Source: Candidatus Omnitrophota bacterium
GTDB taxonomy: Bacteria; Omnitrophota; Gorgyraeia; Gygaellales; Profunditerraquicolaceae
Direction of reading: 5' to 3'
Length of the DNA: 64,000 nt
Assembly: GCA_030650425.1 (NCBI GenBank)
Contig: JAUSED010000005.1
Span: forward strand, 270,932-334,931
Both the position numbers and the translations under genes were made by a program. Of this stretch, positions 6,751 to 53,000 are shown one piece after another. The stretch's first letter is position 1. Every line of letters starts with the position of its first letter. The notes below the pieces were generated by a model. The model was not told the origin of the DNA. It searched no databases and was given only the letters and a program-made list of their open reading frames with translations.

Positions 6751-6781
6751 GGGACTGTCCCCGCTTTTTGGGGACTGTCCC
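6751..6781. repeat. Paired palindromes GGGACTGTCCCC-N7-GGGGACTGTCCC (GGGGACA-family element).
   Basis: Seen directly. The same pair architecture recurs at 49885-49917 and 50966-50992. Confidence 0.8.
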
Positions 6782-6822
6782 ACGACAAAATGAGTATTGG
6801 CAGCTAAATATGCGGGGTAAAT

Positions 6823-7755
6823 ATGATTTGGATAATCGGGGTATTATTTTTGGTTTTACTCGCGGCAGTTACCGCGCTGGTCCTAAGGATTTCCTCGCAG
6901 GTAAATGAACGGCTAACTCAGATGAACCAGTCGCTTCAGGAAGCCGGCAAGATTATCGGCTTAAACCTCGGTAATACCTCCAGCGTATTCGGTAATGTTA
7001 AAGAGCAGCTCGGCAGGTTAGAGGCGACCAATAAACAGATTGTCGATATCAGTAAGGATATCTCCAGCCTGCAGGAGCTTTTGCGCGCGCCTAAGTTTCG
7101 CGGGGCAATGGGCGAAGTGCTCTTGGAGAATTTACTATCGCAAGTCTTGCCCAAGGATCATTACTCAACGCAATACCGCTTTAAAAGCGGGGAGGCAGTC
7201 GATGCCATTATCAAGCTCGGAGAGCGGATTGTCCCGGTAGATGCCAAGTTTAGCTTGGAAAATTTCCAGAAGATGCTGGAGGCGCAGGATGAGCAGTTAA
7301 AGGTCAATCTCCGGAAGAAATTCATTCAGGATGTGAAGAACCGGATTGACGAGGTTTCTTCTAAATATATCCTTCCGCAGGAGAATACCTATGATTTCGC
7401 GCTGATGTATATCCCGGCGGAGAATGTCTATTATGAAGTGATTATCAAAGAGGATATTTTTGCTTACAGCCTCTCGAAAAAAGTCATTCCTGTTTCGCCG
7501 AATACCTTTTACGCGTATCTGGAGGTAATTTGCCTTGGATTAAAAGGCCTGATGGTGGAAGAGAACGCCAAGAAGATTTTGAAATCTTTAAGTGCGCTCG
7601 AGATTGAAATAGATAAATTTAAAGAAGATTTTAATACCCTCGGCAGCCATCTGAGTAATGCCAATACTAAATACTCGGATTCGCAGAAGCGCTTGGATAA
7701 ATTCAGCGATAAGCTTGTGAATATCCAGGATGCCAAGCAAATCGAAACGAAATAA
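6823..7755 (+). CDS. rmuC: DNA recombination protein RmuC.
   Basis: 310 aa. N-terminal TM segment, coiled coil, RmuC core (…FRGAMGEVLLENLL…). Confidence 0.75.
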   Translation: MIWIIGVLFLVLLAAVTALVLRISSQVNERLTQMNQSLQEAGKIIGLNLGNTSSVFGNVKEQLGRLEATNKQIVDISKDISSLQELLRAPKFRGAMGEVLLENLLSQVLPKDHYSTQYRFKSGEAVDAIIKLGERIVPVDAKFSLENFQKMLEAQDEQLKVNLRKKFIQDVKNRIDEVSSKYILPQENTYDFALMYIPAENVYYEVIIKEDIFAYSLSKKVIPVSPNTFYAYLEVICLGLKGLMVEENAKKILKSLSALEIEIDKFKEDFNTLGSHLSNANTKYSDSQKRLDKFSDKLVNIQDAKQIETK

Positions 7756-8021
7756 TGATTTTTAGCGTTAAGGTAATCCCTAAAGCAAGCCACGTTAGAA
7801 TTGTACCTTATAAGCGAACAAGTAATTCTAACGTGGCAAGCCGGAAGCTGGTTAAAGAAGAAGGGAGCGGCTTTAAGGTATATTTGACTAAACCCGCGCA
7901 GGACGGGCTGGCTAATGAACAGTTAGTCAGTTTGTTATCCGCACATCTAAAAATCAAGAAATATCAGATAAAGATTATTAAAGGGGAAAGATGCAGAAAT
8001 AAACTTGTTGAAATTACTTAA
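7755..8021 (+). CDS. DUF167 / YggU (UPF0235) family protein.
   Basis: 88 aa. The pattern …VKVIPKASH…KV.LTKPAQDGLANE.L…LS… is typical of YggU. Confidence 0.65.
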   Translation: MIFSVKVIPKASHVRIVPYKRTSNSNVASRKLVKEEGSGFKVYLTKPAQDGLANEQLVSLLSAHLKIKKYQIKIIKGERCRNKLVEIT

Positions 8022-8748
8022 GAGTTATAATCCTTTGGAAGCCGTAGCCGGAAGCCCCGTAATCAGCAGCTTTAGCGTGCGGGCCAGCGGGAATATGTCT
8101 TTATCCTACGGGGAAACAAGCCTCTCGTTAGAGAACCGTCAAAGTTTCTTAAGCCCCTTAAATGTAGATTATCAAGATTTGATTTGCGCTAAGCAAGTAC
8201 ACGGAAATAAGGTTAAATATGTAAATGAGACAGATAAAGGGAAGGGCGCAGTTACTTACGGCACAGCCTTACCGGGTACAGACGGTTTAATTACCGACAT
8301 ACGGAATTTACCGTTGGGAATATTGACGGCAGATTGCCTTTCTATATTTCTCTATGATCCCCAAAGGCCGGCCGTAGGCTTGCTCCACGCCGGCTGGCGC
8401 GGCTCTAAAGAAAAGATTGTTTCTTGCGCGCTAGAATTAATGCGCAGTAAATTTAAGACTAATCCGGTTGAATTATTTGCCGGATTTGGCCCAGCGATCA
8501 AGGATTGTTGTTATGAAGTTTCGGACGAGTTCAAGGATAATTTTACAACGGGATTAACGCAGAGACAGGGGCGTCTTTATTTGGATTTGGCACAGGTAAA
8601 CCGAAAAGAGTTAATCGGTTTAGGCGTAAAGCCAGAGAAAATATTTGATGCGGGTTTTTGCACTGTTTGTGAGAAAGAAGATTTCTTTTCCTATCGTAAA
8701 GAAGGGAAAGATTGCGCCAGAATACTTTCGGTGATTATGCTCAGATGA
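8005..8748 (+). CDS. pgeF: Peptidoglycan editing factor PgeF / YfiH laccase-domain protein.
   Basis: 247 aa. LTADCLSIFLYDP…LLHAGWRG and the C-terminal Cys/His motif. Confidence 0.75.
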   Translation: MLKLLKSYNPLEAVAGSPVISSFSVRASGNMSLSYGETSLSLENRQSFLSPLNVDYQDLICAKQVHGNKVKYVNETDKGKGAVTYGTALPGTDGLITDIRNLPLGILTADCLSIFLYDPQRPAVGLLHAGWRGSKEKIVSCALELMRSKFKTNPVELFAGFGPAIKDCCYEVSDEFKDNFTTGLTQRQGRLYLDLAQVNRKELIGLGVKPEKIFDAGFCTVCEKEDFFSYRKEGKDCARILSVIMLR

Positions 8749-49940: not shown

Positions 49941-49976
49941 TAAAGAAAGCGCTTTCCCAAAACCCCGGTTTTACCC

Positions 49977-50004
49977 TTGAACCTGCTTACCTATATTGTA
50001 TACT
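49977..50004 (+). promoter_or_regulatory. Candidate promoter TTGAAC-N16-TATACT for the giant gene.
   Basis: Hexamers read from the sequence, 47 nt upstream of the ATG at 50052. Confidence 0.3.
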
Positions 50005-50051
50005 TTAACTAACATACGACTGGCAACCGAAAATCCAACAATAGGTAAAAA

Positions 50052-53000
50052 ATGCGCAGGAAAAATAAGCTTCTATCTTTTTTGCTGTGTTTTAGCCTTT
50101 TATTTGAGCAGGCTGGTTTTGCTCAAATCGCAGGCGAGCTGGACATCTCCGGCCATCTTGCTCTCTTCCGCAATTCCCTTGTTTTAGATAAATTCCGTCC
50201 TTTACATTTGCGTTCTTTGCAATATCTTCCCCAAGACAATAGCTTTAAGCTTCTTTTAGACAAAGGCGACCAATTTTCCCAAAACCGCAGGGTACATTTT
50301 ACAACTTCTGCAGAAGGGGACACTTTCCGTCAGAGCTATGGCGAAGCCACTCAAAAGGAAAGTGTCCCCTTGGATGAAACTAAACTTAAAGACGAAACCA
50401 AGGTTCTCTTAAACTACTTTTTCATCGGCCTTACTCTTCCCAACAGCTCCTTCTGGGTCAACCTACGTCCTGATGCCGAAGATAACATTATTGATGATTA
50501 TTTAGCCAAGACTGACGTAGGTAAGATTCTTCTGGAAGCCGATCTCCAGCTTAAAAAAGACACTGCCAAATTCACTTCTCCCGAAACCCCCGAAGGTAAG
50601 CTTTACTGGGATAAGCTTTATCAAAAAGCAGGTGAGCTCTTAGGTAATGAAAACATCACCATTCCCACCTTAACTCGTCCTTGGATCGTCCCGGGTGAAA
50701 TCATTATCCGCGAAACCAAAGATAACGCCTATATCTATAAAGCCACCCTTAAAGTAATGTTAGAGCAGGATTACCTTAAAGACTCAGCTACTTACAATTT
50801 TAGCGACTCCAGGCTAAAAGCTCTTAACGAATATTCCAGCCAACTTATCAGAGAACTGATTATTCCTAAGCTAACCAAAGAGGTAAATACTTCTAAAAGG
50901 TACGCTTCGCTACGGCAAGTATATTACTCTTTAATCCTAGCCCAATGGTTTAAGGCCAGACATCAGGGACTGTCCCCGAAGGGGACTGTCCCTGATGCCG
51001 CTTCTGCGCTCATCAACTCCCACAACCTCACCAACCTCATCTCTAAAGAAGCTTGGTCCAAAACCACCTACTTCCAAGCCTACCAAAAATCCTTCAAGGA
51101 TGGCGAATACAACATCCAACAGCCAGCCTATACTCCTACCGGTCAGGTGATCAGGAGTTATTTTAGCGGAGGGTTATCTTTCGGTAAGATACCCTTTTCT
51201 TCCGCCTCTCCAACGTCCGGAAGTCCTATTAAGCAAATAACAGATTCAACAATTCTTTTTGAAACAGCCGGTGAGGAAGGTATTTCACCTTTAACCGGTA
51301 ATGATATACCTGCCTTAGCTGTTATCGGAAACCCCATGAATCCATTACAAACAAATATAACCATAATAGAAGAGGCGCCCTTGCCTTCAGGTTCGCCAGC
51401 CGAAAGGTCTCCTCAATCAGGCGCCTCTTCTTTAGATGCATTATCCGTCGCCAACTCGTCTGCTCAGGTGGGAGCCGCCTCTTCGCCGGCGCAGCAGCAA
51501 CCTGCCTCTTCGGCGGCCATGAGAGGGAGTGAGGACGCTGCGACTTTACCATCTCCGTATGGAAAAAAGTATGTATCCTTAGAGTCCTATCGCTGGTTGA
51601 GGGGAGGGTTCCCCAAAGGTGATTGGGATTTGATAATGAGGCATATATTGCGGATAAATAGATGGGATACCCTATTTATACGAGGTAAAACATCAAAGAT
51701 TTCTGCAATAATAAAATATAAGGGGGGTTTCCTTAAAAACTTAAGTGGAGCAATCCCTCTTGGCCGGGCTGAGTTTATGTGGGATTCGCTTCGCGTCTTA
51801 TTCCATATCGCAGTATATGCACCAGATAAATCTATTAAAGAGAGTGCAATCAATGCTTTAATAAATGTAATTAAGACAGGGAAAGATTCCTATCCTATTA
51901 TCCTGGCTGCCGACGCCTTAGTAGCAATTAGACAAGCGCAGCCAGAATTAGTTCCAGACAGTATTTATTTCCTTATATTGGACAATTATACAACTCCAAT
52001 AAAGGATATGTATTCTAATTATATGTTTGATATTTATAAACGATTAGAACAAGAGGGTAGTCTTAATTTAAGAAGATACATAAATGACAAGCAATTCAAT
52101 AAAATAAAAGAGGAATATACTAATGAAGAGATAATCAACGCCTTAATTTTAAATAACCTTGATTGTATTACAAACACAGCCGAAGATATTGTAATGGACC
52201 ATATAGCTACAGGCTGGTTATTTAGAGAAATGGTCCCCACAGCGTCTAAGAATATACAACAAAAATTTACCTTTACCTTAGAAGATTTAAAAAGTTATTT
52301 GTCTGATATGGGTATTAACTTAGCGGACAGTGAAATAGTTCAAGAGCTAACTAAGCGGGACCTAAGGGTATTTGAAAAGCAAGGGAAAAAGTTAATTCTT
52401 CCTTTAGTTTTTGATACCCTGTTGAGTGGTTACCGCGGTTCAGCTGAAGTGGATCATGCAGATGCGAGGTATTTAACCTACGGTCCAAGGGTAGCGTTTA
52501 TGTTTGGTTCCAGTGAAAAAATGCCATCAATGACAAAGGGAGGTACGAAAAATACTGCTTATGGTCCCAATTCTTTTCATGAGTTTGACTTGGGAATTCT
52601 AAATTTGGAAGGAAAAAATAGACAAAAGATTGATCCGAATGCTGCCTTAGCCATTTTCTATAAAAAGCCATTACCCGAATATGCTCGTAAGAGAACCGTT
52701 GTAATAGAAGGAAAAACTTTTATAGAACATATTCAGGAACTTACGCAAAACCAATTGAAAGAGCGGCGAGCTAAACAGAATATCCTAAGAATACTCAATC
52801 TTATTGCTGAAGGTAACGTTAAAGCTGATGTTTTAAGTGAAGCATTGGATACACTTAAACAGGAGATTGAAATAATGCATTATAATTGCGATCTTAAAAG
52901 AGAATACTGGGAATACCTATTTGGTTATTTGGATGAGGACTTTTATAACAGACTAAAAACTATCTACCACCCTCATCAAAGCAACCGCAATCTGATCAAT

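Follow-up and report, generated by a model that had tools for sequence, protein, structure and literature searches.

Palindromic elements in the window

The DNA analysed here (the window) is a 64-kb stretch of contig JAUSED010000005.1 from a Candidatus Omnitrophota bacterium. Its proteins include BamA, a SurA-like protein, and others of a two-membrane bacterium, and nearly every gene lies on the plus strand. An exact-protein look-up of its SerRS gave no record, but in homology searches SerRS and Prs were each 100% identical to a protein of a Candidatus Omnitrophota metagenome-assembled genome, encoded on a 338-kb contig. Dispersed between and within these genes is a family of short palindromic elements based on GGGGACA. 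A preliminary description had regarded it as a mobilised family resembling repetitive extragenic palindromes (REPs) and bacterial interspersed mosaic elements (BIMEs) or miniature inverted-repeat transposable elements (MITEs), or else as an array of binding sites for a dimeric protein. All nine loci that it listed were recovered with the same sequences and coordinates, and a tenth, a degenerate copy that had been missed, was added at 5215-5241 (Table 1).

Two arm types were distinguished: type 2, (A)GGGGACA(C/T)TTTCC, and a type-1 variant, GGGGAC(A/T)GTCCCC. Their abundance was compared with that in dinucleotide-preserving shuffles of the window. GGGGACA was present 19 times against 3.8 expected (shuffle maximum, 10), and GGGAC was paired with GTCCC at a distance of 70 nt or less 13 times against 1.9 expected. 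The half-site GGAAAGTGTCCCCT, with two mismatches at most, was counted 13 times where 0.29 was expected, far above chance. When the loci were folded, each was well more stable than its own shuffles, with z values from -4 to -11.5. A search of the window with Rfam at gathering thresholds returned six tRNAs only, and the element matches no Rfam family.

Table 1 Copies of the palindromic element in the 64-kb window
Copy	Position	Strand	Location and remarks
Degenerate type-1, GGGACTCTCCCC-GAA-GGGAGCTGTCCC	5215-5241		Inside GH77 (4-alpha-glucanotransferase) open reading frame (ORF) 3806-5602
Type-1, GGGACTGTCCCC-GCTTTTT-GGGGACTGTCCC	6751-6781		Between PP-loop ATPase gene and rmuC; -23.5 kcal/mol, z -4.2
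Type-2, perfect 14-nt arms, 26-nt centre GTCAGGGCTCTTACTAAACTACTAAA	12708-12761	+	Overlaps 3' end of ORF 11689-12738; TAA stop in centre
Three-arm type-2 (> < <), stem extended to CGCAGTAGGGGAC.../...GTCCCCTACTGCG	17696-17775	-	
Short-centre type-2, perfect 14-nt arms, TTT loop	25441-25471		Between prs and L25 gene
Inserted block holding type-2 copy 46052-46104	46038-46143	+	Between RtcB stop and SerRS start
Type-2, T·G wobble at arm position 8, centre GTCAAAGCTATCAGGGAACTCTTTCAA	48333-48387	+	Repeat-rich spacer 3' of tRNA-Ser(UGA)
Nested type-1, 73-nt near-perfect palindrome	49865-49937		GGGGACAG outside, two GGGGACAGTCCCC units inside
Type-2 (50315-50370) with degenerate outer left arm GGGTACATTTTAC	50290-50370	+	In frame in ORF of 1583-aa secreted protein; encodes GDTFRQSYGEATQKESVP
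Type-1, GGGACTGTCCCC-GAA-GGGGACTGTCCC, extended to ATCA.../...TGAT	50962-50996		In frame in 1583-aa ORF; QGLSPKGTVP; -30.8 kcal/mol, z -6.0

Some details of the preliminary description had to be revised. The copy at 25441-25471, described as a perfect 31-nt palindrome, really consists of two arms separated by a 3-nt loop. The core TTTCCGTCARAGCTAT (GTCARAGCTAT), thought to be common to four long-centre copies, was exact in those at 46053, 48334, and 50316, but the copy at 12709 has GTCAGGGCTCT instead. Likewise, most copies had been placed between genes, which holds for six of the ten loci; one overlaps a stop codon and three lie inside coding sequences. In addition, the palindrome commonly reaches 1-2 nt past the 13-nt arm by means of covarying bases.

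Several copies contribute to proteins. The copy at 12709 supplies the final codons and the stop of its ORF, while those at 50316 and 50966 lie in frame within a single ORF. The degenerate copy at 5215-5241 encodes QGLSPKGAVP and is read in the same frame as the copy at 50966, giving the shared form QGLSPKG(A/T)VP; an alignment of the GH77 protein to solved structures stops before this copy, a possible insertion, the region of which is unaligned. The degenerate outer arm of the copy at 50316 is situated at 50290-50302, 26 nt upstream. The protein of 1583 aa that carries two of these insertions (50052-54803) has a signal peptide and internal PAQQQPASSA repeats with no Pfam match, and its orthologues are about 56% identical across the first 400 aa. 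Upstream of two genes, including that of this giant secreted protein, a promoter-like conserved block (CCGGTTTTACC...TTGAAC...TATATT) was found at 49945-50002 and 56280-56317, a 36-nt stretch of which is 92% matched in an Omnitrophota metagenome-assembled genome (MAG; L009 7628-7663).

Among the remaining loci, 6751-6781 is the 100% reverse complement of 49886-49916, which forms part of the 73-nt palindrome. The latter has 33-nt arms with a 97% match, a folding energy of -61.7 kcal/mol (z -11.5), and A and T runs at its sides. When a GC-rich hairpin followed by a T run was taken as the mark of a terminator, only 49865-49937 displayed it, the other copies having no T run; this locus looks like a two-way intrinsic terminator, and it is the sole copy of that appearance. 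Directly upstream, at 49632-49835, is a small XRE-type helix-turn-helix ORF with an in-frame TAA at 49692-49694, which could be a pseudogene, a sequencing error, or a case of recoding. The three-arm copy at 17696-17775 sits between hisG and the SurA-like gene (16493-17623), the sole minus-strand gene. It has a T·G wobble on the minus strand, and the minus strand folds at -48.3 kcal/mol versus -42.2 kcal/mol for the plus strand. The copy at 46052-46104 also has the T·G wobble at arm position 8, and its outermost pair is changed from G:C to C:G.

Structure, mobility, and spread of the family

The family was further characterised with copies from other contigs, which were collected by two scans. 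In a scan of one genome per species for the exact arms AGGGGACAYTTTCC-N3-33-GGAAARTGTCCCCT, 22 loci were found, 21 of which came from seven assemblies of MAGs or single-amplified genomes, six labelled Candidatus Omnitrophota and one 'uncultured Planctomycetales'. A scan of metagenomes, also with exact arms, gave at least 120 contigs with pairs of GGGGACA(C/T)TTTCC and GGAAAGTGTCCCC, and the matches listed comprised 146 distinct type-2 copies after removal of duplicates. The family appears to be specific to Candidatus Omnitrophota and is widespread there. The 22nd locus of the genome scan was on a contig of Bifidobacterium animalis (RSDC01000005.1, L022 2644-2697), in which an identical half-site forms part of a perfect 54-nt palindrome, TTCTGCGTAAAAGGGGACATTTTCC-TATA-GGAAAATGTCCCCTTTTACGCAGAA. 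This occurrence in an unrelated phylum may be due to chance or to an unrelated terminator. A literature search returned nothing relevant on the arm sequence, on palindromic repeats of Omnitrophota, or on a transposase of the REP-associated type in Omnitrophota.

The arms were 13-15 nt long and the centres mainly 23-28 nt, with minor classes of 3-4 and 10-12 nt; in one subfamily the stem was lengthened by ATTTCC/GGAAAT. Since the centres usually begin with G after one arm and hold a (G)CTAT(AG) core, the element has a polarity. The left arm is directly followed by GTAG in some subfamilies (GTAGTAG, GTAGACA) and by GTCA, GCAG, or GTTC in others. The type-1 arm GGGGACWGTCCCC is a palindrome by itself, unlike the type-2 arm. 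The two types constitute one family because they have a 28-nt centre in common: the centre of a type-1 copy in L023 is identical to type-2 centres of L008, L009, and L088, and the difference is confined to the inner arm half.

Paired changes between the arms were observed at several loci, namely G:C to C:G in the window copy at 46052, T:A to C:G in L061 and L064, G:C to A:T in L044, and C:G to T:A in L030. Two positions outside the arm also vary yet remain complementary, and the second of these formed 76 Watson-Crick pairs versus 44 expected (shuffle maximum, 64). The symmetry of the bases outside the arms is by inversion and not direct, and therefore they do not represent a target-site duplication. 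The compensation is evidence that a hairpin forms but not that it is functional, as it could also have arisen when template switching corrected imperfect palindromes.

The elements behave as insertions and are copied as whole units, arms together with centre. The MAG STB_56 contains ten copies of a unit of about 104 nt with near-identical centres. Nine of them have four arms, in the order arm, 12 nt, arm, centre, arm, 12 nt, arm, and one is without a recognisable outer left arm; a further locus of this genome has four tandem 26-nt units of arm plus spacer. Orthologous loci of close relatives, a comparison that the preliminary description had put forward, contained empty sites. The distance from the RtcB stop to the SerRS start is 3 nt in the relatives L151, L152, and L153, the SerRS of which are 86-94% identical, versus 106 nt in the window with the copy at 46052. 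Similarly, the spacer between prs and the L25 gene is 17 nt (TAAAGGAGA...ATG) in L154 and L155 versus 72 nt in the window with the copy at 25442. About 74 kb of DNA from these relatives had no paired element, and GGGGACA was at chance level; the three element-poor relatives are the assemblies GCA_041643315.1, GCA_028687205.1, and GCA_026387335.1. In one of these loci (L154 1-3316), the source annotation gives a product of 3652 aa that combines the domains of PGK, FBPase, TIM, and enolase; it may represent a giant glycolytic fusion ORF or an artefact of annotation.

Presence and absence were also observed within genes. An epimerase of L083 contains two insertions that are lacking in two orthologues, a type-1 insertion of 14 aa and a degenerate one, and the copy at 50966 is missing from the L019 orthologue of the 1583-aa ORF. 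The position of the copy at 50316 is occupied in three orthologues (the window, L019, and L135); L019 has this left arm in another reading frame, and the conservation is therefore at the DNA level. At one orthologous spacer the centre is 25 nt in L083 and 3 nt in L136, indicating that the centre is dispensable.

The genes flanking the copies were compared by all-against-all clustering of 257 flanking proteins and 859 ORFs of the loci, with Pfam searches on the recurrent families; the idea of a regulon was rejected, only unrelated genes being obtained. The recurrent families (among them an epimerase, pilins, Fic, Dus, PurB, AbiE, RibBA, and LexA) are ordinary housekeeping or toxin-antitoxin families.

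A candidate transposase and competing explanations

One contig with a canonical element (L122) encodes a candidate REP-associated tyrosine transposase (RAYT) at 334-825, and the element lies 165 nt upstream of the gene. The first lead to this contig was a phmmer search with sequences of the Escherichia coli RAYT and the IS608 TnpA, which served as a lead only; the assignment rests on the Pfam, NCBIfam, Protein Data Bank (PDB), and profile results obtained subsequently. The product matched Pfam Y1_Tnp (PF01797) at 1.7e-14 and NCBIfam NF047646 (REP-associated tyrosine transposase) at 4.5e-21. Matches of this protein and its homologues to NF047646 ranged from 1e-21 to 1e-24, with 75-86 bits against a cut-off of 80, and the IS200 model matched far more weakly; P0005 and P0106 were above the curated cut-off. 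The sole match in the PDB was the E. coli TnpA-REP (4ER8), a distant one (E = 0.2). We collected 697 homologues, mostly of 161 aa, and all those with a name were from Omnitrophota. Neither the HUH motif nor the catalytic Tyr (in a Tyr-x-Glu-x-Asn-Pro motif) varied in any of 120 homologues.

Seven RAYT loci from different genomes were examined, and in each of them the gene lay between hairpins whose arm core is GAC(R)(Y)TTTCC, for example in the form AGGGG(A)CA(C/G)TTTCC-N10-GGAAA(R)(Y)GTCTGTT. Examples are AGGGGCACTTTCC-GCTATAAAAT-GGAAAACGTCTGT upstream (reverse complement) and TAGGGGCACTTTCC-CGAACAAAAT-GGAAAGTGTCTGTT downstream. These hairpins have the left arm, the TTTCC/GGAAA core, and the GCTAT centre motif in common with the dispersed copies. 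The gene and its hairpins represent a REPtron, the arrangement described for RAYTs (PMC3733652, PMC5581495). The gene was solitary, its surroundings differed from genome to genome, and in six of the seven loci its orientation was opposite to that of the adjacent genes.

Some further features of these loci were recorded. The loci concerned are L143, L145, L147, L148, L149, and L150, and in six of seven the RAYT is the sole gene on its own strand amid a long run of opposite housekeeping genes. In L145, about 160 nt at 7328-7490 consist of the upstream and downstream flank hairpins joined without the gene, 2.5 kb from an intact RAYT, and this looks like an internally deleted derivative resembling palindrome-associated transposable elements (PATEs). 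The right arms of the flank hairpins end in CGTCTGTT, reminiscent of the CGTC tag in Di Nocera et al. 2013. At L062 1038-1661, a further RAYT-like gene, divergent from the first (profile E = 7.7e-44), was flanked by GGGTCAGACCC / GGGTCTGACCC palindromes, which suggests a separate REP-RAYT pair; the same contig also holds a type-2 element.

On these observations we regard the elements, with a probability of roughly 0.75, as REP/REPIN-type (REPIN, REP doublet forming a hairpin) mobile repeats of Omnitrophota, likely moved by a HUH/Y1 RAYT of about 161 aa encoded once elsewhere in such genomes. The idea of a mobilised family in the preliminary description was thus borne out by multiple copying of whole units, empty sites, in-frame insertions in conserved genes, and a RAYT accompanied by hairpins of the same core. 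The element would be a short non-autonomous DNA with two inverted arms of about 14 nt around a dispensable centre, one strand of which would fold into a hairpin of 13-15 bp. The RAYT of this clade, which we infer to move the elements, would recognise the folded single-stranded hairpin as the E. coli TnpA-REP does, and would thus act on single-stranded DNA; for binding and cleavage of the folded element on one strand there is one indirect support, the strand asymmetry described below. Such a RAYT is presumably encoded in the genome of the window, beyond the 64 kb. As most copies are located between co-directional genes, they are probably transcribed, and the transcribed copies may act secondarily as mRNA hairpins.

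Several observations weigh against this explanation. The window itself encodes no RAYT, as the preliminary description had noted and as a profile hidden Markov model search over all six frames corroborated with no match, and the candidate enzyme was seen only in related contigs, where it adjoins just one of the 146 sampled canonical copies (that of L122). P0001 and P0060 fall marginally below the NF047646 cut-off, with 75 and 79 versus 80 bits. The right arms of the flank hairpins end in GTCTGTT and not in GTCCCCT, so that the inner 9-10 nt are shared and the outer 4 nt differ. The GTAG tag typical of REPs associated with RAYTs is confined to some subfamilies, where it adjoins the left arm within the element. 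Both filled sites show short imperfect duplications (TAAA; GGATA/GGATTA), which are unexpected for transposition of the RAYT or IS200 type. Finally, many different centre subfamilies carry identical arms, and this invariance across species is partly by construction, the scans having demanded exact arms.

The distribution of one arm variant between the strands bears on how the elements move. In many copies, T replaces C at arm position 8, so that one strand has a T·G pair and the opposite strand a C·A mismatch. Where the flanking genes are co-directional, the strand with the T·G pair was the sense strand in 36 of 37 such wobble copies (p = 5.5e-10), in contrast to copies with perfect arms and an orientable centre, 7 of which were co-oriented and 11 anti-oriented (Fisher p = 2.7e-6 versus the wobble copies). 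Of 49 copies that could be oriented by their asymmetric centre, 48 had the T in the same arm, which indicates an inherited subfamily trait and not recurrent mutation; a mutation bias (C to T on the sense strand) as the source of the wobble was rejected on this ground. No wobble copies were found between tandem genes on the minority strand of a contig. At three divergent junctions, the wobble strand tracked the adjacent minority-strand gene and not the majority strand of the contig.

Enzymes of the IS200/IS605 insertion sequences (IS) mobilise the foldable strand as single-stranded DNA, and the polarity of insertion is fixed by the replication fork (PMC6006769). The strand bias is what two models predict: mobilisation of the foldable strand alone as single-stranded DNA with such a fork-set polarity, and selection for a hairpin in the mRNA. 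In these genomes, the genes run in the direction of replication, so that the two directions cannot be told apart. The three divergent junctions favour the gene-linked reading and are too few to decide.

Other readings were considered besides that of RAYT-mobilised repeats. It is doubtful that the hairpins are more than selfish REPINs and have been co-opted across Omnitrophota as sense-strand intercistronic RNA signals (for stability, processing, or translation coupling) read by a conserved factor, or that RAYT and REPIN are an ancient vertical partnership. The former reading is based on the wobble copies almost always putting the U·G-tolerant strand on the mRNA, and the latter would explain an arm that is identical across species while the centres drift.

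We consider it unlikely that the copies are first and foremost host RNA elements, namely mRNA hairpins on the sense strand between cistrons (serving as stabilisers or in processing or translation) that a conserved host factor would recognise, with the arms conserved by selection for that role and not by transposition. The bias of the U·G wobble towards the sense strand (36 of 37 copies), set beside 7 co-oriented and 11 anti-oriented perfect-arm copies, would accord with this role, but an equal strand bias is expected if the wobble-tolerant strand alone is mobilised as single-stranded DNA at the replication fork. The copies are also suitably placed, at a median of 51 nt past the upstream stop and 30 nt ahead of the next start codon, and their wobble strand tracks the minority-strand gene at the three divergent junctions. 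Close relatives, however, are without copies at the same junctions, the neighbour genes are unrelated, most copies have no T run after them, and there is no Rfam family match.

A strict MITE, in which the 13-14-nt arms (GGGGACACTTTCC) would be the terminal inverted repeats of an IS of the DDE type moved as double-stranded DNA, is quite improbable. The arms do resemble inverted terminal repeats, and the four-arm copies are like transposon ends with subterminal transposase sites; nevertheless, about 1 Mb of element-bearing loci contained no transposase gene bounded by the arms, and the only transposase adjoining elements is the Y1/HUH enzyme. The short imperfect duplications at both filled sites would fit such an origin, although the bases just beyond the arms are inverted-complementary and not direct repeats, and the uneven distribution of the wobble copies between strands suggests a single-stranded form. 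A gene of any kind bracketed by canonical arms 0.1-4 kb apart was also sought in the scanned loci, and none was found.

Lastly, operators of a dimeric transcription factor, the binding-site array of the preliminary description, or DNA uptake sequences accumulating as inverted pairs can be set aside as very improbable: the half-site is conserved among species, many copies lie just upstream of start codons, and type IV pilin-like genes are numerous at Omnitrophota loci, but the spacing varies from 3 to about 30 nt, the centres are copied with the arms within a genome, the 257 flanking proteins are unrelated (largest cluster, 5 members), copies occur within coding sequence, and unpaired half-sites are at chance level, unlike uptake sequences.

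Neighbouring features and relation to known systems

The window contains other repeats. The sequence TGTCATTGCGAACCCCCGAAGGGGGTGAAGCAATCTCA at 48416-48452 is a member of another hairpin family, unrelated to the first, in which GTCATTGCGA precedes and GAAGCAATCTC follows a GC-rich hairpin; the motif recurs in the flanks of L011 and L001 and within the coding sequence of the L136 epimerase, where it encodes RHCEARSAEAIS. Related repeat blocks at 48188-48310 and 58024-58149 lie directly 3' of two distinct tRNA-Ser genes and are built internally of units (GACAAGCCG.GCAGCGAGT...ATCTTA) about 33-36 nt long. The tRNA 3' end is exactly where synteny with relatives stops, and these blocks may therefore be an integration or rearrangement hotspot. 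Two further repeats, one of 52 nt (98% identity; 55292-55343 and 60997-61048) and one of 129 nt (78% identity; 57668-57796 and 62866-62994), are unrelated to the GGGGACA family.

To our knowledge, REP/REPIN-RAYT systems have been worked out almost wholly in Proteobacteria. The present family is a clean sequence-defined example from an uncultured phylum of very small, possibly host-dependent bacteria, and its interest lies in the phylum, the breadth of the common arm, and the strand rule. It supplies a candidate enzyme together with many natural variants of arm and centre, and its in-frame insertions reach housekeeping and giant surface proteins. The strand rule (wobble copies sense in 36 of 37, perfect copies unbiased) makes a role as a single-stranded DNA hairpin versus an RNA hairpin directly testable. 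In practice, the repeats will break assemblies of Omnitrophota MAGs and create spurious ORFs or start codons, for example GTG in the right arm. The arm could also mark Omnitrophota contigs, as 20 of 22 matches in one genome-collection scan were from assemblies labelled Omnitrophota.

The systems nearest to the family are the REP/BIME elements of E. coli with TnpA-REP and the REPINs of Pseudomonas fluorescens (PMC3116915, PMC5581495, PMC3733652). As in these, two inverted units with a short spacer give a hairpin, and copies are dense, mainly between co-directional genes, with some in genes; tandem and nested mosaics resemble BIMEs. A single HUH/Y1 gene bracketed by the repeat, as in a REPtron, and a patchy occurrence among relatives are likewise common to both. 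Omnitrophota is not among the phyla given for REPs in PMC3733652, in which REPs within genes and REP dimers 20-100 bp apart are known from other phyla, including the Planctomycetes-Verrucomicrobia-Chlamydiae (PVC) group. Unlike a classical REP, the type-2 arm is not itself a palindrome, and the GTAG tag is inconsistent. In contrast to known REP/REPIN-RAYT systems, an identical arm is found across many species while the centres differ, and the RAYT is in a different neighbourhood in each genome, antisense in six of seven loci, and no more than a remote relative of the E. coli enzyme (E = 0.2).

Rickettsia palindromic elements (RPEs), reportedly described by Ogata et al. in 2000, are 100-150 bp long and CGTC-tagged, and we know of no transposase for them. 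They are also mentioned in PMC3733652. The Omnitrophota elements are similar in being palindromic repeats that lie in frame in genes and add short peptides to proteins that are conserved apart from these, here the L083 epimerase, the giant secreted protein, and possibly the GH77 protein, but differ in having a length of about 30-105 bp and a candidate RAYT.

PATEs are derivatives of IS200/IS605 without a transposase. The stretch at L145 7328-7490 is like them in keeping both RAYT-flank hairpin ends with the gene deleted, whereas the abundant dispersed copies are symmetric arm doublets and not left-end plus right-end derivatives. The Correia MITEs of Neisseria (also called NEMIS, Neisseria miniature insertion sequences) are bounded by terminal inverted repeats of 26 bp with a TA duplication and are not known to have a HUH enzyme, and the DNA uptake sequences (DUS) of Neisseria are single 10-12-mers accumulating independently. 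With Correia/NEMIS and pairs of DUS, the present family has in common short inverted-repeat elements at gene ends that are co-transcribed, some being terminators; unlike DUS, the elements are copied as entire units, and their unpaired half-sites show no enrichment. Taken together, the Omnitrophota elements have the features of REPINs: over-representation, a hairpin doublet, unit-wise replication, presence and absence among relatives, and, in related contigs, a RAYT flanked by the repeat.

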